Source of the DNA: a virus
Lineage: Duplodnaviria; Caudoviricetes
IMG/VR virus record: IMGVR_UViG_3300028072_000001
Coordinates: 4,203-68,202 of that record
Length of the DNA stretch: 64,000 nt
Direction: 5' to 3' (one strand)
This document shows positions 901 through 45,335 of this stretch, in pieces. Below the pieces are notes generated by a model. The model was not told the origin of the DNA, made no database searches, and saw only the letters and a program-made list of their open reading frames with translations. Position numbers and translations under genes: made by a program. Every line of letters begins with the position of its first letter. Positions within the stretch are counted from its first letter, which is position 1.

Positions 901-2250
901 TTAGCTGGTGACCGAAGGCACCGCGCAGTTGGACAGAACCGCGCCAGCCTTCATGTTCGAATTGAACAGGTTCAAGAACGAGTGGTAGTAGAAGATCGAA
1001 CTGGTACGGTACGTTGTGGTTCCAGTACCGTCGTTCGCCGGAACCGGCATTGTGGTTACGCCATCGCCAAAATCGTAGAGCGAAGGCTCAACCGTTTCGC
1101 AGATTCCCCAAGTTTCGCTGCAAACCGCGTCGAGACGGCCCTGCTTGGCCTTGTAACTGACGTGGAGAGGACGGCCGCCATACGTCGGAGCCATGTACTC
1201 CATCGTCATATCCAGAGCCTTGTCGCCTGGAGGACGAATCTGCTGTTGCAGAACGTTGGTATAGAGTTGCGTTACCGCAAGTTCCTGGTCGGCATTGCAA
1301 ATCCATTCAAAGTTCTTGGCATGCTCGTTATCATCGCCCAAGCCGCGGCGAATGAGGATTTGCACTTTGTACGGGTCGGTAGTGTTGATCGGCTGATTGC
1401 CCTTGTTGATTGTCGGAGTGGACAACTGGCCTGGATAGGTTGCGCGGGAAAGGTTCAGCACCGTTCCAGTTGTCGCGGCCACCTGGTACGTGTAAATCCC
1501 GGCAATGCCGGAATTGAGTGCGCCGGACGAACCCTGAATCATCACAAAGTCGCCAGCAGCCGTTCCGTTCGGCAGAGCAGTCGAGAAATAGACTATATCG
1601 GCCGCGCCATCGACGTAGGAGACGATTGCGTTAGCAACGCCGCCGGTACGTGGCGAACCGCCTTCAGCAGCAAAGAATTGCACGACTTGCTGTTCCTGAA
1701 ACTGGTTTGCCTGTCCGCCAAGCCCGGAAATGGACGAAGTGGAGTTGCCTGTGCCGGTGTTGTTGTTGACGGTAGCGGTTGCGGGAATCTGGACGATTGC
1801 GCCGCTGCCATCGGAAAGGAACTGGGAATCAAGCCCCTGCATGTAGGAATCGAAAGAATTTTTCAACTCTTCCGCTTTGAGGGAGATGAGACCGCGCTTC
1901 GGCCCCTGTACCGCGATTCTGGCGAGATACGTTACTTCGTTCCCTGCGAATGTTCCGACAACCGTTTGGTCTCCGGAAACCCACAAAGAGCCAGTGCCGC
2001 GATTCAAGGCATCGCCGTCGCCGGTAGCCTGGAAGATTGCCGCACCAGATTGAATCCTGATCGGAATACGGAACGCTGGACGGGAAGTCCCGCCGGCGGC
2101 CGTAGTGACTGCGGTCGGATAAGTCTTTGCACCCTTCTTGAAGAAGTTGTAAAGAGTCCGGCCCTTAAAAACGTAATTCGGAATACCTTTTGCAAAGGCT
2201 TCGATTTCGACGCCTTGTACCGCGGCCTCTTGTAGAGGAGAAGTAGCCAT
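901..2250 (-). CDS. Major capsid protein (probable HK97 fold)
   Basis: 449 aa; position after portal and scaffold; own promoter and GAGG SD; size and composition typical of a major capsid protein. Confidence 0.8.
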   Translation of the reverse strand: MATSPLQEAAVQGVEIEAFAKGIPNYVFKGRTLYNFFKKGAKTYPTAVTTAAGGTSRPAFRIPIRIQSGAAIFQATGDGDALNRGTGSLWVSGDQTVVGTFAGNEVTYLARIAVQGPKRGLISLKAEELKNSFDSYMQGLDSQFLSDGSGAIVQIPATATVNNNTGTGNSTSSISGLGGQANQFQEQQVVQFFAAEGGSPRTGGVANAIVSYVDGAADIVYFSTALPNGTAAGDFVMIQGSSGALNSGIAGIYTYQVAATTGTVLNLSRATYPGQLSTPTINKGNQPINTTDPYKVQILIRRGLGDDNEHAKNFEWICNADQELAVTQLYTNVLQQQIRPPGDKALDMTMEYMAPTYGGRPLHVSYKAKQGRLDAVCSETWGICETVEPSLYDFGDGVTTMPVPANDGTGTTTYRTSSIFYYHSFLNLFNSNMKAGAVLSNCAVPSVTS

Positions 2251-2437
2251 ACACGTATACCTCAGATTCAGCTTGACGCCTGCGCTTTGACACCGCGCCG
2301 GTGAAGTTTAAGCGTCAGCGATCTACACGAACTCAATCGCGCAGATTCTTACAGCTACCCGATATACGTTTGGAGTGTTTCGCGAAGGTGTCTATTTTTT
2401 TCTGGGACTTGCGCCCAGTGCATCGCTCAACGCTAGG

Positions 2438-2467
2438 AGGCTACTAGGAAGGGGAATCGTGTGTCAA
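2438..2467 (-). promoter_or_regulatory. Sigma70-like promoter for the capsid gene
   Basis: TTGACA (2467-2462), 18 nt, TAGCCT (2443-2438) on the minus strand, about 180 nt upstream of the capsid ATG. Confidence 0.55.
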
Positions 2468-2469
2468 TC

Positions 2470-2519
2470 AAAAAACCGAAACCCACATCGGAGTCATAAC
2501 TTCCCATGCGGGTTTCGGC
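2470..2519 (-). terminator. Intrinsic terminator downstream of ORF 2536-3033
   Basis: 13-bp stem CCGAAACCCGCAU/AUGUGGGUUUCGG (one G-U pair, valid only on the minus strand) followed by 6 U. Confidence 0.75.
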
Positions 2520-2535
2520 ATTGGCTTTGGACAGT

Positions 2536-3033
2536 CTAGCTATCCTGGCCGAAGTCGATAGCGGTCAGCGGCGGCGCAGTGACAGTGATCGTATGAGTTT
2601 TGCTTACCGTTCCCACGCCAGAATCGGCGGAGACGGCGGAAAGGGTCAAATCAAAACTGGTTCCAGCGAATCCCGCGGGAACGGCGGCTTCGACTTTCAT
2701 TCCATCGGAAGTCGGTGAGAGCACTACGGAGCCGTCGCTTGCCGCCCACTGCGGGGTAGTTCCAGGCGCTTGCGCGCCGTTCGGCGGAGTAAGCACTGCT
2801 GAAAAAACTCCGCTGGTTCCTGCAACAATCGAGAAATCGGTTGGCATTTTCTTTTCTCCTACTGGCTTGAAATTGACTTTGCGAAGGGCTTTCTTTTTAG
2901 GCTTTTCGAGAGCCTTTTCTATTTCCTCTACTTCATGTTCCAGCCGCCCGATTTTCTTTAACTCTAAATCTTCTTTCTTCTCGATACGATCGAGTTGTTT
3001 CTTCCCCGATTTTTTCTTCCCCGGCTTTCGCAC
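2536..3033 (-). CDS. Protein with a Lys/Glu-rich N-terminal helix and a C-terminal Ig-like beta domain; possible head decoration protein
   Basis: 165-aa ORF from GTG; the C-terminal 103 aa is T/S/A/V-rich beta-type sequence; strong internal SD and ATG at 2847. Confidence 0.6.
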   Translation of the reverse strand: MRKPGKKKSGKKQLDRIEKKEDLELKKIGRLEHEVEEIEKALEKPKKKALRKVNFKPVGEKKMPTDFSIVAGTSGVFSAVLTPPNGAQAPGTTPQWAASDGSVVLSPTSDGMKVEAAVPAGFAGTSFDLTLSAVSADSGVGTVSKTHTITVTAPPLTAIDFGQDS

Positions 3034-3045
3034 GATAGCCCCGAT

Positions 3046-3213
3046 TTAGCCAAAGAAAGTTGAGAGAGTCAAGAAGAACATGCCCATCCACCCAATTTTT
3101 GCGCGATACGGTTCGACTGGCGCTGGCCAGCCGAAACCGGCTATGGCGAAAAGAACGAGCGCCAGAACCACACAGATAAGATGTAGCGGAGCCGAATTAT
3201 GTTGAGCAAACAT
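3046..3213 (-). CDS. Small two-TM membrane protein (MFAQHNSAPLHLICVVLALVLFAIAGFGWP...)
   Basis: 55 aa translated by hand (below the track cutoff); GGAGGG SD; two hydrophobic segments. Confidence 0.65.
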   Translation of the reverse strand: MFAQHNSAPLHLICVVLALVLFAIAGFGWPAPVEPYRAKIGWMGMFFLTLSTFFG

Positions 3214-3277
3214 TTAACCCTCCATGCCCGATATTCTTACAATCGGATTTGAACTCTGTCTGTGCAATAGGGAACAA

Positions 3278-4636
3278 CTAGTAGTAAGTAATGTACTTCC
3301 CGTTTTTTAGGTACGCTTTGCCGGAAAGCCATAGCGCGTCTGGAGTTTTGGTCCAGTCTACTTCGTCAAACGGCGGAGCATCGGTAACTCTGATCGGCTG
3401 TCCGGTTGCCGGAACTGCCGCTTTGGGTGTCGCTGGTTTTCCGTTTGTCGAGCCATTGGGTTTGATCGGTGTAACGCTCGCCGTGCGGGAGAGATTCGGA
3501 TAGAGCGTATTGCGATGAGCGCGGAAAACTTGCGGCAACAACTCGGCAAACTTGGCGCTGATAAACCTAGACGTTCTTTCGTTGTCGCCTTTGGCGCGAA
3601 TATCCTTGGCGTTGCGGAGATACCCCTTGTCCGCTTTCATCGCGTCCCAAACTTTGTGCATCACCTGTTGGGTAAATTCGCGGCGCCCTTCATTGGACAT
3701 TTTGATTTCTTTGAAAAACGGGTCGAGAGTTTTGGAAAGCGCTCCGTTGTTGAGGCGCGTCACTTCATTGCTCAACAGGCGTGTTTCGGTTTCCCGTTCC
3801 TGTTGCTGCAAGCGTTGTTCGCGTTGCGCGAACTCTTGTTCTCGCGGGTCTTTGGTAACACGGCTACTGGCCAGTTTTTCGGTTTCGCCTTTGAGTTTTC
3901 CGTACCACTCTCCAAGTTTCGCCAGAGTGTCGTAGGCTTCCTGTCCTTTTCCGGTCTCCAGCAATTTTGCGATCGTAACCAGCGTGCTCCCGAAACCTAC
4001 CGCGTCCATCCGTTCAACCATCGGCTTCATCAGTAAACGGTCAAGCCCTGCGGCATTGCGCGTTTCGGTCAGAATGTCGATTATGTTTTCAGCGGCTTTG
4101 ATAACGCTTTCTGGGTTCCCTCTGTGCAGTTGTTCAATCAGGTCGCGGTCACCATTCGCAAATTGCTCAATCTCGGTGTCATAGTCGCGAACCTTGTTTT
4201 GCAGTTCGGTGATGCCGTCTTCGCCGCCCAGAGCTTCGATTGTGGCTTTGGCTTGGCGAGCTTCCTGAACGGTCGGAAATTCTTTTTCGTAGGCTTGGCG
4301 CCCGAAGAACTGTTTGGCCAGAGCCTTAGCCGCGTTGTTCAGCGATTCTCTTTGTTTTGGGTCAGTCGCTTGCTTGGCAAGGTTTTTGAGCGAAGAGATG
4401 GAATCTTTGGTTTGCTGATCGAACTTTCGCGCATCGGTTTCAACGCTATCGCCTTCGCCGGGGTCTCCAGGTAACTCTTCCTCAACGCCAGCCTCTCCGC
4501 CTTCCGCACCATCGGCGGCAGTCTCCGTTTCAGGAGTAGCGACTTCAGTTGAGATTTCCGGAGTTTCTACTTCGGCGGTTTCCGTTACTGGAGCAATTTC
4601 AGTTGAAGGGGCTGCGATCGTTCCGATTTCTTCCAT
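3278..4636 (-). CDS. Capsid scaffolding protein (probable)
   Basis: 452 aa; very acidic disordered N-terminus, helical/coiled-coil body; lies between portal and capsid; GGAGG SD. Confidence 0.7.
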   Translation of the reverse strand: MEEIGTIAAPSTEIAPVTETAEVETPEISTEVATPETETAADGAEGGEAGVEEELPGDPGEGDSVETDARKFDQQTKDSISSLKNLAKQATDPKQRESLNNAAKALAKQFFGRQAYEKEFPTVQEARQAKATIEALGGEDGITELQNKVRDYDTEIEQFANGDRDLIEQLHRGNPESVIKAAENIIDILTETRNAAGLDRLLMKPMVERMDAVGFGSTLVTIAKLLETGKGQEAYDTLAKLGEWYGKLKGETEKLASSRVTKDPREQEFAQREQRLQQQERETETRLLSNEVTRLNNGALSKTLDPFFKEIKMSNEGRREFTQQVMHKVWDAMKADKGYLRNAKDIRAKGDNERTSRFISAKFAELLPQVFRAHRNTLYPNLSRTASVTPIKPNGSTNGKPATPKAAVPATGQPIRVTDAPPFDEVDWTKTPDALWLSGKAYLKNGKYITYY

Positions 4637-4684
4637 GCTGCGTTTCCTCCCGATTTAACCGATTGGCAGAGCATACAACAAAAT

Positions 4685-7147
4685 CTATTGAACTGGTACA
4701 GGCGGTTGTGGTTCAGGCAACATAGCGTGCGCGGCCGGAGTCAGAGCGTCCGGCGGTTTGGGCGTTACCGGAATACCGGCTCTAGACAGAATGGCGTCGG
4801 CTTCCTGCGCGTCGGCCACATCCTTGTAATTCAAAGACACGCTCACGGGCTTTTGCGGAGGAGGCGGAGCATTGGCCGCGGCCTTCTTTTGTGCGGCCTG
4901 TACGTGCTCTTGCCAGTGCAATTCGACGTTTTCAAATCCGTCTTTATTCGTTTGTTTCGCTTTGCGGCCTTCGGGAGAGTTCATGTACTTCCAGCAGCAC
5001 ATCGCTTCCGTGTCGTGGTCTTCGTAGTCGGCTACAGGCATAGAGCTTTGCAACTGTTGAGGAGCAGTGGCAATCTGTTGCTCTGCTTGAGCGAGTTCAG
5101 CAGGGTCAATGCGCGGGTCGGCCTTTAGCTGTTGAAGCTTTTGTTCTGCCTCAACCAGTTGCGGATTCGGGGCAGGCGTGCTCTTGAGCAGGATTTCAAG
5201 TTCGCCTTCTTGTTTCTCAAACGATGCCACTTGCGGAATATACAGTTCGTCGAGAGCCACCATCCGTTTGAGGAATACCAAGTTGGCCGCATTAAAGAAC
5301 ACTTCCTGCAATGCTGGATTCTTTGCTGAACCGTCCAAGAGTCCCATGAGCCGATTCTGTTTCTGCGTGTACGTTTCTGGGAAATTCTCGTTGGCTTCGG
5401 GGAAACACAGGATATTCGCTTTCAGATCGTTGATTTCTAGGCGTATAGCGTCGGCGCCGGGGATTCTTTCATTAATGCTCTTATCGCGGCAGCGCGCGCC
5501 CCACCGTACCGCTTGGCGCATGGAAGTCGCTTCCATGTTCTGCAAGACGTGCCAAGTAGGACCGATGCGCCCTAGAGCCTGGTCGCGCTGAATGGCGATA
5601 CCGCCCTTCGTATCGTTTGAGCCCGTGTCACCACCAGCGAGAGCCGGATACCCTCCGGTCACCAGTTCCGAAAATTCTCCCTTATAGGAATTGATAAATT
5701 CCGGCAGTACTTGCGGCATCGTCGCCGCAGGTTCGACGAATACCAACTGGTCGGCAGTCAGTCCAGGGATAGGCTTGTACGTCCCTGAATCGCCGGGGAT
5801 GTTCGTTTGCTGTCTTAGAGCTTCGATAGCAAACGCTTTATTGTGGAACCATTTCTTCGGGATTCCGCGAACCAGATAATCGTTGGCCAGGTCCAGCCAG
5901 TTATTGAGCCGTTTCTGCAAAGGCATCATCGACGTGCCCATTGCGTTGCGATTCTGGCCGTCCCCGGAGTACGCCTGTCCAAGAGCCCATGAATCGTCCA
6001 TCGACTCATCGCGAGCGAAGCACAGAGTTTCGCCGGCATACACGACCAGCGCACCGTTCGGGAATTTCGCAATCAGCCCATCACGAACGGTTTTGTCTTT
6101 CACGTCCATAAACGCATTCGGCCTAAACCAGTTGCGTTGAACGGTGCAATCGTCGGCAATCGAATCGGAAGTTACATAAGTAGACTGCATTCCCAACTTG
6201 ACGTTCTGGCGAGCGAGCTTGGCGATTTCGCCTTCGGTAATTCCATTCGAGCCGTTTTTGATTTCATCGGCGCACCAGGGAAACATTCCTTTGGCGCGGG
6301 ACATACTGATTTCAGTCTCGTACTGCAATACGTCCACTTCCTCCAGACAGTTGGCCATCATCGGCGTTAGTTTCACTTCCAGTTTGCCGTGTGCCGTTCT
6401 GACTTCCTGTCCTCGCGGAGTACGCTTCTGTGTTTCGGTCGATTCCGTTCCGCCAACTTCTTTTTCGGTTTCTTCGGAAACCATTTGGTCTACAACATCG
6501 GTCGGCGGCTCGGTCTCCGGAACAATCGAGTCGTCTTCGTCGTCCTCTTCCCATCCGAAGCGTTGGCCGTCCACGATAAACCGCGTGTAGTAGAGAGCGC
6601 GGCCATCGGTCCAGAAATAGCGGCACGCATCGGTCTGACTCATAATTAGATCGTTATTGCGAGCCACTACCTTTACAAACTTGTCGGCGGATTCAGTAGC
6701 CGTAATCTGCGCGTCGTTGTCGGCGTCTTGCGGCTCGAAGCGCACTCCAGGGACGGCGCGGGTAAGCGAAGAGATGATAATTTGCGCGTAACTCGAATAG
6801 ATGTTGGTCGGGAGCAGCGACAAGTCCATTTGCATCGATGGACCGTAGCCCGAAGATTCGCCGGGAATTTCCCAACCGCCGCCAACACGGGGAAGCAGGA
6901 ATTGAAACCCGCGGAAGAATAGCGCCGCTTCCCAGGCTTGAATGACTTCGATCAGCCGCGCAGGATAATCGCGCTTGCTGGCCTTAGTGACCAGTTCCTT
7001 GAAAGCATTCTCTTCGGCTGTGGATAGATCGACTTTGACAAATTCGCCTACTGCGGAAAATTCAACGCCAGCCAGCACGCCAGGTTGATACTGGTCCGCA
7101 GACTGGTCCGCAGCATCCGTTTTCTTTTCTAATTCCGCTGTTGGCAC
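4685..7147 (-). CDS. Portal protein
   Basis: 820 aa downstream of terL; helical composition, Q/P-rich C-terminal tail typical of P22-like portals. Confidence 0.8.
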   Translation of the reverse strand: MPTAELEKKTDAADQSADQYQPGVLAGVEFSAVGEFVKVDLSTAEENAFKELVTKASKRDYPARLIEVIQAWEAALFFRGFQFLLPRVGGGWEIPGESSGYGPSMQMDLSLLPTNIYSSYAQIIISSLTRAVPGVRFEPQDADNDAQITATESADKFVKVVARNNDLIMSQTDACRYFWTDGRALYYTRFIVDGQRFGWEEDDEDDSIVPETEPPTDVVDQMVSEETEKEVGGTESTETQKRTPRGQEVRTAHGKLEVKLTPMMANCLEEVDVLQYETEISMSRAKGMFPWCADEIKNGSNGITEGEIAKLARQNVKLGMQSTYVTSDSIADDCTVQRNWFRPNAFMDVKDKTVRDGLIAKFPNGALVVYAGETLCFARDESMDDSWALGQAYSGDGQNRNAMGTSMMPLQKRLNNWLDLANDYLVRGIPKKWFHNKAFAIEALRQQTNIPGDSGTYKPIPGLTADQLVFVEPAATMPQVLPEFINSYKGEFSELVTGGYPALAGGDTGSNDTKGGIAIQRDQALGRIGPTWHVLQNMEATSMRQAVRWGARCRDKSINERIPGADAIRLEINDLKANILCFPEANENFPETYTQKQNRLMGLLDGSAKNPALQEVFFNAANLVFLKRMVALDELYIPQVASFEKQEGELEILLKSTPAPNPQLVEAEQKLQQLKADPRIDPAELAQAEQQIATAPQQLQSSMPVADYEDHDTEAMCCWKYMNSPEGRKAKQTNKDGFENVELHWQEHVQAAQKKAAANAPPPPQKPVSVSLNYKDVADAQEADAILSRAGIPVTPKPPDALTPAAHAMLPEPQPPVPVQ

Positions 7148-7184
7148 TACTCCCCGCGATCACCCGATTTGTGACGCAAGAAAA

Positions 7185-7436
7185 TTATCCGAAAGAAACG
7201 GCGCCGCCAGCTAGACCAGCCGGCAATGGACTTTGACCGGGCTGCGAGTACTGCAACAGATCGGGAGCCACAACTCGCGTAATGGTGAATTGTCCATTTA
7301 GCGAAGAATGCCCCGCGCCGGTAACCTTGATTGCGTTCCCGACGTTGCCAGCGGTCAAACCGTGCCCGACCACCTTGAGCGTAGTCACTTCATTCAGTCT
7401 AATCGCTTCCGCGATGTAGAGCGGATTTCCGGCCAT
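7185..7436 (-). CDS. Small beta-domain protein (GHGLTAG...IKVTG...NGQFTIT motif)
   Basis: 83 aa; the motif resembles the FCCH-like beta domain seen in phage structural proteins and in ORFs 40196, 43635 and 59790. Confidence 0.6.
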   Translation of the reverse strand: MAGNPLYIAEAIRLNEVTTLKVVGHGLTAGNVGNAIKVTGAGHSSLNGQFTITRVVAPDLLQYSQPGQSPLPAGLAGGAVSFG

Positions 7437-7448
7437 AGATGTACCCTC

Positions 7449-7640
7449 CTATTTTCTTGCTTTCTCGAACATGATTGCCATGCGTGCGCGCTTACCAGTT
7501 TTTCCAGGCGCATGTTCTTTTTCGTGAGCATACTTGGAAGTGGACTCACCATGACGAGCGGCCGCAGCGGAAAAACTTCCTTTAGTGCCAGCTTTCTTTT
7601 CGCGTTGCGATTCTTTTTGCATCCACCGTTCACCCGCCAT
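7449..7640 (-). CDS. Small basic hypothetical protein (MAGERWMQK...)
   Basis: 63 aa; resembles small K/A/H-rich proteins often found near phage portal genes; in-operon spacing. Confidence 0.65.
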   Translation of the reverse strand: MAGERWMQKESQREKKAGTKGSFSAAAARHGESTSKYAHEKEHAPGKTGKRARMAIMFEKARK

Positions 7641-7815
7641 GAGTCACCACCTTTGCCAGAGAATGTTGAAGCACGTCATCCGTTCCGCCGTGCGCTTCTG
7701 GGCCTTTCGGCTTAGGTAAGCGCATGCACCCTATAGGTTTGCACGCGGCAGCATGATTGCTGCGTCCGCCGTCAGGACGTGCTCTGCCGGTTCTTCCAGC
7801 GGATAGAAGTCTCAT
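7630..7815 (-). CDS. Hypothetical protein
   Basis: 61 aa; ATG overlaps the upstream TGA and the stop overlaps the next gene. Confidence 0.4.
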   Translation of the reverse strand: MRLLSAGRTGRARPDGGRSNHAAACKPIGCMRLPKPKGPEAHGGTDDVLQHSLAKVVTHGG

Positions 7816-7976
7816 CGGTTCGCTTTCTTGAACGCAGTCACCATGCGCGGCTCTTTCTTCTTGTGCGCCAATTCAGGATTCGCGTGCAGTTCGCCCTTCA
7901 TCTTGTCTTTTTGTTCGTTGGACAAGGGACTGCCAGATGAAAGTAGATAGCGCGTCTGTCGGGGAGTCCAAGGCAT
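7812..7976 (-). CDS. Small hypothetical protein (MPWTPRQTRYLLSSGSPLS...)
   Basis: 54 aa translated by hand; starts 2 nt after the previous stop and ends in an ATGA overlap. Confidence 0.65.
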   Translation of the reverse strand: MPWTPRQTRYLLSSGSPLSNEQKDKMKGELHANPELAHKKKEPRMVTAFKKANR

Positions 7977-7977
7977 T

Positions 7978-8406
7978 TTAGAGACCGGGAATATGGTGCG
8001 AACCGCGTGAGGACTGTTGCATTATTTCCGGCATCTCTTCGCCGGCCTCTTCGCCCATCTCTTCGTCGGGACTCTCTTCTTCCTGTCCGGCGGCCTTGTG
8101 CATGTGGTCCATTGCATCCTCGGCGGTATCGTGCTCGGAGTTGTGTTCGTGGCCTTCCTCACCGTGCTTGGAGTGGACCTTATGCTTGTTGCTGGCCTTG
8201 TCGTGGGTGTAGTGGATTTCGTGCGCTGGCCCGTGGTTCGCTACCACATCCTGAATCGATTCGCTGGAAGATTCCTTTTGCGCGCCGTCGGTCGGTTTCT
8301 TGTCCGGCTCCGGCTTGGGTTTACTGCCGTGACTCTCTTCGTGCATGCGAGCGCGGCTAATCGAATGGTGAGGCGTTCCGTCGTTTGCATAAACTCCCAT
8401 GTTCAT
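7978..8406 (-). CDS. His/Glu-rich hypothetical protein
   Basis: 142 aa with 18 His and an acidic C-terminus; AGGAGA SD. Confidence 0.7.
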   Translation of the reverse strand: MNMGVYANDGTPHHSISRARMHEESHGSKPKPEPDKKPTDGAQKESSSESIQDVVANHGPAHEIHYTHDKASNKHKVHSKHGEEGHEHNSEHDTAEDAMDHMHKAAGQEEESPDEEMGEEAGEEMPEIMQQSSRGSHHIPGL

Positions 8407-8412
8407 TTTCTC

Positions 8413-8811
8413 CTAGGACGGCGCTGTAGCCGCCGCTGCTTCTCTTGCTGCTTCGAACCGAATCTTTTCTTCCGCTTTGGCTTTCTTGTACGCTTCCTCA
8501 ATTTCCTTTTGGCGTCTCGCGAGCATGATTTGATATGGCGTACCGTGTTCGACGACTTCAGTTTGAGCGGGAGTAGAGTCTGCTGGTTCTGGAGTTGCGC
8601 GGGTAGCTTGAGGCATGCCAGGTATCAGGAATTGCCGCAAGCGATCCGCTTCCGCCCATCCCCGATTGGCCTCTACGATACACCGATTCATTTCTTCGGC
8701 GTGAAGATTTTTTAAGGTTGCTACCTCTTCGGCATGTTTCGAGCGCAGCGTGTTCAGTTCCGCTTCGAGAAACCGGACATAACGCGAACGGAATAGATCA
8801 GTCCAACTCAT
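8413..8811 (-). CDS. Hypothetical coiled-coil protein
   Basis: 132 aa; ATGA-coupled to the upstream gene. Confidence 0.65.
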   Translation of the reverse strand: MSWTDLFRSRYVRFLEAELNTLRSKHAEEVATLKNLHAEEMNRCIVEANRGWAEADRLRQFLIPGMPQATRATPEPADSTPAQTEVVEHGTPYQIMLARRQKEIEEAYKKAKAEEKIRFEAAREAAAATAPS

Positions 8812-9023
8812 GCCTTAATCCTCATTTCTCGCAAAAAGCACTTGTCTTTCTCCGTCAGGTTCAGCACGGACAGGCGAGCACGCTCCCGCGCCCAGTCATA
8901 ATCTTTCTCTATCCGCGCAATTTCCATATCGGCAAACGCTTGCGCTTTTTGGCGTATCACTTCGCGCATTGCCTCTGCCATCTGGCGCGAGTTAGGGTAA
9001 ACGCTGCGTTTGTCGTCGTCCAC
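8808..9023 (-). CDS. Hypothetical protein
   Basis: 71 aa; GAGGAG SD; coupled in the operon. Confidence 0.6.
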   Translation of the reverse strand: MDDDKRSVYPNSRQMAEAMREVIRQKAQAFADMEIARIEKDYDWARERARLSVLNLTEKDKCFLREMRIKA

Positions 9024-26107: not shown

Positions 26108-26317
26108 ATGAACGAGAAGCGATCAGAGGACTTGGCGGACCTAATCTACGAGACTCCGAATCCTAAGATGTGCCGCAAGCACCCACGGCTGGTATTCTTC
26201 GATACCCACTATTGCCCTGCATGCACAATCGAAAAGGAAGTCCCGCGCCGGCAGCTTCGAGGTTCCGAAAAACAATTCCTTGCTCAAGTTGGCCGCAAGG
26301 ATGTAAATTTATCCTAG
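26108..26317 (+). CDS. Small hypothetical protein (CxxH...CxxC)
   Basis: 69 aa; GAGGA SD. Confidence 0.5.
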   Translation: MNEKRSEDLADLIYETPNPKMCRKHPRLVFFDTHYCPACTIEKEVPRRQLRGSEKQFLAQVGRKDVNLS

Positions 26318-26335
26318 TTCCAGGTAATCCATTCG

Positions 26336-26392
26336 AGGGGCCGGATGCCGCTACATCTGGCCTTTCCCTCTTAGCGGAGAGGAAAACATTTG
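26336..26392 (+). promoter_or_regulatory. Two-hairpin leader sequestering the SD of the replication-initiator gene
   Basis: Hairpin 1 GGCCGGAUG-CCGCUA-CAUCUGGCC (26339-26362); hairpin 2 UUUCCCUCU-UAGCGG-AGAGGAAA (26363-26385) contains the SD; the loops are perfectly complementary. Confidence 0.55.
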
Positions 26393-26851
26393 AGCGTTCA
26401 AGCGATTTCTTGGGTTATAGATTGTTCAAGGCACAAAGGTAATCCTCTCGTAGTTCTGCTAATGATCGGAAACCATGCCCGTTCTGACGGAACTGGAGCA
26501 TGGCCGTCTATCCATACGCTCGCCAAGGAATCCCGTTTGAGTGATCGTACCGTTCAGCGGTGCATTGCAGTTCTGGCCAAGAGCGGAGAACTGCGAGTCT
26601 CCAAATCCGCTGGTCCTTACGGCGCAAATCTCTATGCCATACCGGGTGTCAAACTGTCACCGGGGGGTGTCAAACTGTCCGAGAGGGGGTGTCAAACTGA
26701 CGCCCTAGGGGTGTCACAGGTGTCACCCAATCCGTCCTTAACCGTCCCTAAAGATAAAGAGCGTATTTTGTGGGCTATTCAGGAAAGCCAAAGAACCGGA
26801 ATCGACGCTGATACCTTGCTTGCACAAAAGAAAGACTTGACTATGGGCTAA
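26390..26851 (+). CDS. Phage replication initiator-like protein with an N-terminal winged HTH (HTH_36-type)
   Basis: MSVQAISWV...LVVLLMIGNHARSDG..AWPSIHTLAKESRLSDRTVQRCIAVL; internal iteron array; TTG start. Confidence 0.8.
   Translation: MSVQAISWVIDCSRHKGNPLVVLLMIGNHARSDGTGAWPSIHTLAKESRLSDRTVQRCIAVLAKSGELRVSKSAGPYGANLYAIPGVKLSPGGVKLSERGCQTDALGVSQVSPNPSLTVPKDKERILWAIQESQRTGIDADTLLAQKKDLTMG
26644..26725 (+). repeat. Iteron array, probable replication origin
   Basis: GGGTGTCAAACTG at 26644, 26665 and 26687, partial GGGTGTCA at 26709 and GGTGTCA at 26719. The 21-22 bp period is about two helical turns, and the array is inside the initiator gene as in lambda O. Confidence 0.8.
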
Positions 26852-44372: not shown

Positions 44373-45335
44373 CTACTCTACCACTATTTCAGCTTGTTCC
44401 GGAATGGAAACTGAATTTATGCGCTTCGGAAGAAACGCCTTGCTCATCTCGGACTTGAAATTGCTTTCCCATCCACCAGGCAAGGAGATGTGATAGTTAA
44501 ACTCCCGTTTCGGTAGTCCGCGGCCGACTTCCCTTTCAACAAGTTTCCGTCCGAAAGCCAGAATGCGCCAGTAAGGGTCGTCAATAAATTGCTCTACCTT
44601 TTTCACCCTGTCGGCAAACCCCAACTGTCCGAACCCGAAAAATTCTTCGTAAGTCTGTGGACCACCTTCGCCATAACTGCGAACCGCTCCAACGTGGGAG
44701 CACTTGGCAATTCCAGGCGCTACGGTTTGGCTTTTGTCTTCATTCAGGATTCTTTGCAAAAGACCGTCTTGCTCCCAGTGCGACACCGCAAACTCATCCG
44801 TCATTGGGTCGGTATTGAATCTTTTAGAGATGTACCCAGGCATATCGCCGTAGTACTTTGGCGTCGAGTGTTCCACAACTAGTTCCAGTTTCTTAGCGGA
44901 GAAACAGACTCCGATACTGTAGAACCACGGCTGAAAAAGAATGTCGTCCTCAATCGGAGCTTCGCGGTTGAATATCCAGCCCATCGAACAGAAAATGTCG
45001 GGATACTCTTCTTGCTGCTCCCGATGCCATGAGAAAAAGTCAGGATGCACCATCACGTCCGATTCGACGTAGTACACGCGGTCATAGCCCGTGTTGTACG
45101 CCCACAAGTAGGCGTTCATCACATTCGCCGTGTTCCCGTAGAAATCGTTGTCAGGAACGAAATGAACATGCGCTTTGAAGAGTTCACATACTGCTTGAAC
45201 CTGTCGATTCTTGTGCGTGCCGCGATCTGGGAAGACGTGAATGGGAATGTGCGGCTCGTACTCGCGGATTCGTTTTAAGCAGCAGGCAAGCAACTCCTCA
45301 CGGCGGTAGGTCGGTACGATCACCACTTCATTCAT
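44373..45335 (-). CDS. GT-A fold (GT2-like) glycosyltransferase
   Basis: VVIVPTYRREELLACCL N-terminus; YYVESDV DxD-like motif. Confidence 0.75.
   Translation of the reverse strand: MNEVVIVPTYRREELLACCLKRIREYEPHIPIHVFPDRGTHKNRQVQAVCELFKAHVHFVPDNDFYGNTANVMNAYLWAYNTGYDRVYYVESDVMVHPDFFSWHREQQEEYPDIFCSMGWIFNREAPIEDDILFQPWFYSIGVCFSAKKLELVVEHSTPKYYGDMPGYISKRFNTDPMTDEFAVSHWEQDGLLQRILNEDKSQTVAPGIAKCSHVGAVRSYGEGGPQTYEEFFGFGQLGFADRVKKVEQFIDDPYWRILAFGRKLVEREVGRGLPKREFNYHISLPGGWESNFKSEMSKAFLPKRINSVSIPEQAEIVVE

Follow-up and report, generated by a model that had tools for sequence, protein, structure and literature searches.

A phage leader motif of two hairpins with complementary loops, a proposed pseudoknot-type control of translation

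Described systems and the phage leader

In plasmids of the IncI-alpha/IncB/IncL-M groups, translation of the replication initiator (ColIb-P9 repZ, pMU720 repA) is activated by a pseudoknot and inhibited by an antisense RNA (PMC4705826). In ColIb-P9 repZ the activating pseudoknot forms between an upstream loop and the hairpin that masks the Shine-Dalgarno sequence (SD) (PMC4705826). In enterobacteria the timP mRNA, which belongs to the type I toxin-antitoxin system timPR, likewise cannot be translated without a pseudoknot (PMC11228461). Phages carry hairpins of the T4 type that sequester the ribosome-binding site (RBS) of homing-endonuclease and late genes (I-TevI/II/III, segB, mobE; PMC2988022).

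The leader that we describe here lies in a window of 64,000 nucleotides, bases 4203–68202 of a 68.2-kb IMG/VR phage record of soil origin with direct terminal repeats, where it precedes the gene of an HTH_36 protein, plausibly a replication initiator. An earlier note on this DNA had likened it to the IncI-alpha/IncB plasmids, and in outline the likeness stands: a probable replication initiator would have its translation controlled, a hairpin masks the SD ahead of a weak start codon, and an upstream stem-loop has a loop complementary to the SD region, so that pseudoknot and inhibitory hairpin would be mutually exclusive. It does not extend to the parts. The 3' partner in the plasmids is a 4-nt CGCC stem tract just upstream of the SD, whereas here it is the whole loop of the second hairpin, including two bases of the SD; the stem-loops, about 100 nt apart in IncI-alpha plasmids, abut here. 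Unlike those plasmids, the phage leader has no peptide of the repY/repB/RLP type that would open the hairpin on termination, a sequence scan turned up no gene for an antisense RNA, the initiator belongs to an unrelated family, and the module also serves genes with no part in replication. The leader is not an IncI-alpha-type system, though alike in outline.

Functionally it stands closest to timP and to the T4-type hairpins. In timP, as here, a stem-loop that sequesters the RBS is complementary to an upstream stem-loop, the complementarity covaries and the conformations exclude each other (timP forms a 7-bp pseudoknot; PMC11228461). However, timP encodes a toxin in the chromosome, has an antisense sRNA of its own (TimR) and keeps its stem-loops apart (PMC11228461), whereas the phage hairpins lie side by side, are complementary over their entire loops, have no known sRNA and bear no sequence relationship to timP. 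With the T4-type hairpins the leader shares a place ahead of phage genes, many of them homing endonucleases, and an SD held in a stable hairpin, which in T4 keeps translation low on long transcripts. T4-type hairpins are single and are relieved by a late promoter inside the structure (PMC2988022); here, by contrast, a second hairpin with a complementary loop is obligatory and covarying, and recognisable promoters lie upstream of the whole module. Because this second hairpin is obligatory and its fully complementary loop varies freely, we regard the module as distinct from both.

Fully complementary loops of 6–7 nt are known from kissing complexes such as ColE1 RNAI/RNAII, R1 CopA/CopT and HIV TAR/TAR*, and in P1/P7 c4 RNA and P4 CI RNA one transcript carries both the regulator hairpin and the RBS that it targets, the two covarying among related phages. 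The phage leader resembles the kissing complexes in its loops of 6–7 nt, paired at every position by Watson-Crick pairs only. However, all these systems depend on two distinct RNA molecules or on prior cutting of the transcript by RNase P.

To our knowledge, the combination of a split SD with two fully complementary, reprogrammable loops has not been described in bacterial or phage leaders. No paper describing the module was found in the literature, though an automated catalogue of structured RNAs from IMG/VR (PMC10690425) may list it as DNAVirus_X. Rfam 15, which includes a model of c4 RNA (named in PMC8546580), has no match on the element, in the window at E<=10, at 10 homologous loci at E<=1 or at 6 endonuclease-associated loci at E<=0.1. 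The module is a real and strongly supported phage leader motif, apparently undescribed, which we take for a form of SD-sequestering translational control of the pseudoknot type. It is a compact element of unusually clean covariation, common in uncultured phages (dozens) and absent from Rfam. The genes that it would control are dosage-sensitive, a likely initiator with the putative origin inside its gene and many homing endonucleases, and its natural orthogonal loop pairs could become a toolkit for synthetic translational control.

The leader in the window and the gene that it precedes

The minimum-free-energy fold (ViennaRNA) of the plus strand places hairpin 1 (HP1) at 26335–26366, with a 13-bp stem of 26335–26347 with 26354–26366 whose arms are G-rich on the 5' side and C/U-rich on the 3' side, and with CCGCUA in its loop (loop 1, 26348–26353). 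The upper part of this stem, 26340–26347 with 26354–26361 (8 bp including one G.U), is the first hairpin of the earlier note. Hairpin 2 (HP2) follows on the same strand at 26367–26382, where fold, alignment and RNAalifold agree in pairing CCUCU (26367–71) with AGAGG (26378–82). As read from the sequence, its arms TTTCCCTCT and AGAGGAAA flank the loop TAGCGG at 26372–26377, and the minimum-free-energy fold trims the hairpin to 26367–72 with 26377–82 (6 bp). Loop 2, UAGCGG (plus strand, 26372–26377), is exactly the reverse complement of CCGCTA. The 5' arm of HP2 is an anti-SD and its 3' arm the 3' half of the SD, so that the SD region GGAGAGG (26376–26382, plus strand) straddles the junction of loop 2 and 3' arm; GAGG stands at 26379–26382, 7 nt ahead of the TTG at 26390. 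Two hairpins, exactly complementary loops and a GAGG at this distance from the start are what the earlier note had read at these positions.

As a single sequence the plus strand of the leader folds with −31.7 kcal/mol, at a z of −2.16 that is modest (ViennaRNA); for the minus strand z is −0.65, no gain over shuffled sequences. A candidate promoter, TTGCTC-N18-TAAATT, lies at 26280–26309 on the plus strand, about 25 nt upstream of HP1; it is a weak match that the consensus scan missed, and we place it there tentatively from the position of the promoters of homologues. Covariance model R1, built as described below, found in the window the known copy only and no further copies of the module. Extra hairpins with the same loop, at 44888–44907 of the window and near 15.45 kb of G001, are attributable to chance, lying on the opposite strand at non-homologous genes.

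The gene behind the leader (26390–26851, plus strand) codes for a protein of 153 aa from a TTG start and is likely a lambda-O-like replication initiator. TTG 26390 is fixed as the start by an in-frame TAG at 26372–74 in loop 2, which rules out any start farther upstream, and by residues S2 to A5, invariant across 36 homologues. This explains errors of annotation, in which gene callers extend the N-terminus falsely through the leader or start at Met25. Among the leaders, a TGA overlapping the start codon occurs only where Ser2 is encoded by AGY. The protein matches Pfam HTH_36 at 8e-9 and, from residue 1, PHROGs 8540, 1032 and 391 ('replication initiation O-like') at 1e-11 to 1e-14; its recognition region, RTVQR, is nearly invariant among homologues. 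In the PDB the protein-family profile has no sequence match, and NCBIfam gave none.

The gene contains an iteron-like array at 26644–26728 on the plus strand, made of three copies of GGGTGTCAAACTG... spaced 21–22 bp plus a fourth, degenerate copy, with the repeat sequence TGTCAAA and followed by an A/T-richer stretch. Arrays occupy the equivalent position in eight homologues (L001, L026, L071, L072, L093, L094, L097 and L077), that of L077 being built of a different repeat unit. In lambda the iterons of the origin lie inside the O gene. The resemblance comprises an N-terminal winged-HTH with O-like PHROG matches and, just after the DNA-binding domain, three or four dyad-containing repeats about two helical turns apart and then the A/T-richer stretch; unlike lambda O, however, the protein has only 153 aa, and no P/DnaC-like partner or helicase is recognised nearby. 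Among the neighbouring ORFs, many of which have no match at all, no helicase, helicase loader or P/DnaC-like gene was recognised. The repeats are candidate initiator-binding sites, and because the internal array matches the O/ori layout it supports the label of initiator. The earlier note had called the gene a replication initiator, and the HTH_36 domain, the O-like PHROGs and the internal iteron-like repeats make this plausible at the level of sequence.

Covariation, anatomy and spread of the module

Homologous genes taken from viral contigs, metagenomes and assemblies gave 26 distinct leaders, the window's own included. All 26 have the twin-hairpin architecture, with 19 different loop sequences of 6–7 nt that are exactly complementary, such as CCGCUA with UAGCGG, CCACCA with UGGUGG, CCUCAUA with UAUGAGG, CUUAACC with GGUUAAG, and GUGCGAU with AUCGCAC. 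As a control, the same parser passed none of 26 upstream regions of distant HTH_36 homologues. The 18 sequences with 6-nt loops make up alignment A3; the 7-nt-loop subset (MAFFT alignment A4) was poorly aligned on its 3' side and was scored with a parser of our own instead of by columns.

In A3, 97% of the cells of the whole structure are paired, against 75.6% in shuffled alignments and about 50% in slid controls, and 18 of its 22 pairs change on both sides. This holds for all 11 tested stem pairs of HP1 (88.9–99.2% of cells paired), for three of the five pairs of HP2 (96.6%) and for four of the six positions of the loop-loop helix. The latter is paired in 100% of cells (shuffled, 69.8%; slid, 29–57%) and has a covariation score of 0.754 against 0.128 in shuffled alignments, none of 500 shuffles reaching either the observed loop-loop pairing or the observed score. 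The RNAalifold consensus independently recovers HP1 and HP2. Even the closest relatives, L001 and L100, differ by about 0.43 at third codon positions; synonymous sites are near saturation, so that in nucleotide terms the leaders are almost independent of one another and only selection can have kept their loops complementary. Faster-than-neutral change of the loops is not demonstrable, synonymous sites being already near saturation. The pairing of loop 1 with loop 2, which the earlier note had proposed, is thus borne out as a selected RNA feature by covariation among 26 homologous leaders with 19 loop sequences. The same note had seen an anti-anti-SD in the pairing of GAGGG (26335–39) with CCCUC (CCCTC in the DNA, 26366–70). 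Both motifs are present, and in the 13-bp HP1 of the minimum-free-energy fold GAGGG pairs with CUUUC; their proposed pairing does not covary (69.7% paired, with 67.8% after shuffling and no gain over slid registers), and we discard it.

Pair types bear on whether the element works as RNA or as DNA. Across the 26 leaders all 164 loop-loop pairs are Watson-Crick, with no G.U, whereas the stems hold 386 Watson-Crick and 83 G.U pairs (17.7% G.U). Like a DNA palindrome, the loops thus make a perfect inverted repeat of Watson-Crick pairs, and the origin-like iteron array lies some 250 bp downstream, so that the module might be an inverted-repeat operator for the HTH protein or a part of the origin, with the RNA hairpins incidental. 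We consider this highly improbable. Read from the opposite strand, the 83 stem G.U pairs would turn into A.C mismatches, and mean fold energy is 5.5 kcal/mol better on the plus strand (−29.3 against −23.8 kcal/mol). Besides, the half-sites always lie exactly within hairpin loops, the repeats take 19 sequences while RTVQR is nearly invariant, the iterons have a different sequence (TGTCAAA), and the module also precedes genes without an HTH product. Because the stem G.U pairs can be read on the plus strand only, the element is an RNA of that strand. Loop-loop pairing is under selection, and the structure over the ribosome-binding site is a real plus-strand RNA structure.

The anatomy of this module of about 50 nt is well conserved. 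HP1 is a stable, G/C-rich hairpin of 11–13 bp, and HP2 a short one of 4–7 bp with CYCU as its 5' arm; the linker between them measures 0–1 nt in most members, and loop 1 is 17–19 nt from loop 2. The loop consensus is CC-NNN(N)-A for loop 1 and U-NNN(N)-GG for loop 2. Every member has the AG(R)G of its SD paired in HP2, and the start codon follows 3–8 nt after HP2 and mostly 7–8 nt after the GG of loop 2. This spacing suggests a split SD, a canonical GGAG/GGAGG spanning the junction of loop 2 and HP2 arm with its first two G's in loop 2. The burial of the SD in HP2 that the earlier note had proposed thus applies to AGRG, masked in every member, but not to the first two G's of the SD, which lie inside the loop. 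One leader, L129, is an exception in having a working SD downstream of HP2; it still keeps GG/AG at the loop/arm junction.

Start codons in the 26 leaders are TTG (15), GTG (2), ATG (7) and apparently ACG (2), and the use of TTG or GTG in 17 of 26 points to translation that is low by design. At about 20 of the 26 loci a strong sigma-70-like promoter, TTGAC(A/T/G)-N16-18-TAnnAT, lies 25–65 nt upstream of HP1, as would suit a dedicated leader, and a consensus scan showed no −10-like element inside the G/C-rich module. Upstream ORFs end 17–107 nt before HP1.

The module extends well beyond the initiator gene. With R1, a covariance model made from A3, a further copy (loops CCAGUA and UACUGG) came to light in the genome of homologue L077, ahead of an Endonuclease_7 gene. 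Scanning viral contigs for the pattern GGGGUGCC-N4-5-CACCCC brought up 119 hairpins; 16 of the 119 have the exact complement of their loop within about 25 nt downstream, against one with it upstream. In all 16 the complement stands between CYCU and AGRG arms, and the SD and a start codon then follow. When a general parser was applied to 1.81 Mb of fetched phage DNA it yielded 48 distinct instances, against one in shuffled DNA, with loop 2 ending in GG in 43 of the 48. In 151 sampled genomes of Acidobacteriota and two MAGs, R1 gave terminator-like or unrelated matches only, and the module was not found there.

Downstream of the module we found Endonuclease_7 genes at four loci (L120, L194, L198, L246), GIY-YIG genes with NUMOD3 at two (L151, L168), T5orf172/MUG113 at L163, a weak HNH match at L206, a D5-type primase-helicase at L148, an HTH_23 protein at L213 and small zinc-finger proteins at several others. 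The module thus recurs in many phages ahead of genes for homing endonucleases and other proteins of DNA metabolism, and the copy-number switch of the earlier note is too narrow a description of it.

That the module travels with such unrelated genes (Endonuclease_7, GIY-YIG, T5orf172, D5 primase-helicase, HTH proteins) would also suit a structured RNA that is bound or cut, a platform for a protein or RNase or a 5' stabiliser, in which loop complementarity builds a shape read by protein. Candidate readers are a phage translational repressor, a Rom-like binder of kissing complexes or an RNase acting at GG/AG like T4 RegB. The GG/AG kept at the loop/arm junction even in L129, whose gene uses another SD, fits this idea, as does the timP pseudoknot, which also raises mRNA stability (PMC11228461). 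Nevertheless, we judge it quite unlikely: at the loci examined the module is not accompanied by any candidate protein, the freely varying loop letters would let a reader recognise shape only, and the constant spacing from the start codon suggests that what is controlled is the access of ribosomes.

Pairing in cis and between transcripts

We favour a cis-regulatory RNA in the 5' leader of the HTH_36 mRNA in which the pseudoknot is permissive and the two hairpins are the closed form, and we give this reading a probability of about one half. The module would set the frequency of ribosome initiation on the initiator mRNA. Since abutting hairpins bar loop pairing in cis while both stems stand, the leader should have two mutually exclusive forms. 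Kissing in cis with both stems intact seems impossible, as a linker of 0–1 nt would have to span about 22 bp, and an H-type pseudoknot with HP2 melted would be the sole route to loop pairing in cis. In the two-hairpin form the AG(R)G of the SD would be buried and translation low. In the pseudoknot form loop 1 would capture the sequence of loop 2 and HP2 could not form; AGRG, the 3' part of the SD, would then be unpaired together with the start codon, and the form would be permissive. The pseudoknot may form first on the nascent transcript and relax later to the closed form; driven by a strong promoter, initiator would come as one small, timed burst. The leader would thus probably act as a kinetic or equilibrium throttle on a strongly promoted gene.

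A crude estimate in the style of Dirks and Pierce puts the pseudoknot at +0.8 +/- 1.7 kcal/mol relative to the two hairpins, and such near-equal energies fit a two-state device. We rank the pseudoknot first as the permissive form because experiments have established activating pseudoknots of this kind, between an upstream loop and a hairpin over the SD, in ColIb-P9 repZ (PMC4705826) and timP (PMC11228461). It may also hinder ribosome binding, because the first two G's of the SD are paired in it and because in many members the 3' arm ends 2–4 nt from the start codon. The claim of the earlier note that loop pairing frees the SD is correct in that the pseudoknot would exclude HP2, but the partner in loop 2 contains the GG of the SD, so that there is no simple freeing. 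The fit would also be tight, the connecting strand of 6–7 nt barely spanning an HP1 of 11–13 bp unless the lower stem opens. As a trigger of the switch, neither a leader peptide nor an antisense RNA nor a ligand pocket was found in the leader module. A leader peptide or translational coupling was rejected for lack of a conserved uORF, the RUG at the top of HP1 standing in frames 0/1/2 in 10/8/8 leaders. A sequence scan for antisense RNA detected neither promoter-like nor terminator-like sites around 26330–26450 of the minus strand, whose hairpin has no U-run after it.

The same loops could also pair between molecules. Loop 1 of one leader, or a processed HP1 fragment, might kiss loop 2 of another mRNA and repress it; with both stems intact the whole SD would be buried, its GG by loop 1 and its AGRG by the 5' arm of HP2, and translation would fall as mRNA, and hence genome, copy number rises. 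The 3–5 variable letters of the loops would then be an address against cross-talk between leaders in one phage. The complementarity of all 6–7 loop nucleotides, without a G.U in 164 pairs against 17.7% in the stems, resembles that of kissing complexes, natural or engineered (ColE1 RNAI/RNAII, TAR/TAR*), and speaks for such a lock, as do the 0–1 nt linker of most members and the location of the GG of the SD in loop 2. P1/P7 c4 RNA and P4 CI RNA offer a precedent, their hairpins acting on a downstream RBS from the same strand and the same transcript. Several genomes hold more than one instance: L194 has five between tRNA genes, with five different loops, G005 has two with different loops, and L246 has two. 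The differing loops within L194 and G005 speak for addresses; L163 speaks against them, two of its three instances sharing the loop CCCUAAU. Repression between molecules is further weakened by loop change that is not demonstrably faster than change at synonymous sites, by extra same-loop genomic hairpins (44888–44907; G001) that look like chance, and by the fact that neither processing nor a free HP1 RNA is evidenced. We hold it to be the main rival of the permissive pseudoknot, possible but doubtful.

A module that addresses itself, its loops held apart in cis and pairing from one mRNA copy to another, or from a freed HP1 to the HP2 of a different copy, strikes us as unlikely. If true, it would provide shut-off in proportion to transcript or genome dosage, an antisense-style copy control without an antisense gene, and the 3–5 free loop letters would be orthogonal addresses giving several independent channels per phage (as for the five endonuclease genes of L194).

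Two smaller observations bear on the pseudoknot that we prefer. All loop positions covary, the terminal ones too, as is typical of true kissing complexes, and this counts against it. So does L129, whose working SD lies downstream of HP2, with regard to a pseudoknot model in which the SD is masked.

Gene starts in the probable initiator family

The gene downstream of the twin hairpin (the pair of hairpins with complementary loops, window 26335-26382, plus strand) codes for a 153-aa HTH_36 protein, likely a lambda-O-like replication initiator (window 26390-26851, plus strand). Because the true start in this family is a TTG located behind a structured SD, starts have been miscalled, as seen by comparing the public gene calls (proteins P0001, P0005, P0007, P0012, P0016 and others). 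The window's own public call begins at Met25 and is 129 aa long; in others the leader is translated as a false N-terminal extension of 30–80 aa. In two homologues, the invariant N-terminal residues SVQAIS are preceded by ACG (L075:2498-2500 and L101:1109-1111), with no in-frame ATG, GTG or TTG found nearby; this ACG could be either a sequencing error or a start of non-canonical type.

Other leader architectures

Many homologous loci (L001, L100, L076, L073, L093, L096 and L101) possess a further conserved element, ...GGCGCGGC...GCUUCGGUC(C)G..., located between the promoter and hairpin 1 (L001:2910-2945). The window leader lacks this element, which could represent an operator or one more hairpin, the third. 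The twin hairpin itself is missing from a 65% identical homologue (L074:2440-2500), being replaced there by a 10-bp long-range stem, GCCGGUUACU...AGUAACCGGC, which reaches its end at the start codon and is an alternative means of enclosing the ribosome-binding site.

A repeat array within the probable initiator gene

The HTH_36 gene contains an iteron-like array composed of three 21–22-nt repeats and a degenerate fourth one (window 26644-26728), translated into the repeated peptide GVKLSPG/GVKLSER. Homologues keep this array at the matching position, and this conservation suggests a lambda-type origin within the initiator gene itself.

Same-loop hairpins and twin-hairpin leaders elsewhere

A perfect 6-bp hairpin, GUUUCU-UAGCGG-AGAAAC, occurs at window 44888-44907 (plus strand), within a minus-strand ORF of 320 aa. 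Its loop is identical to that of hairpin 2 and, on the minus strand, to loop 1. A comparable extra hairpin lies near 15.45 kb in the relative G001; the genes containing the two are non-homologous, and these same-loop hairpins probably reflect chance. Twin-hairpin leaders also precede each of the small endonuclease genes scattered between the ~24 tRNA genes of another phage region (L194, IMGVR_UViG_3300044981_000038, 1200-9000, above all 4115-4423), which also holds a possible bacterial RNase P RNA (92 bits, against a gathering score of 100). In a further phage contig, L129, where one twin-hairpin leader lies close to head genes, there is a weak group I intron match (L129:3189-3329, minus strand; 29 bits against a gathering score of 50).
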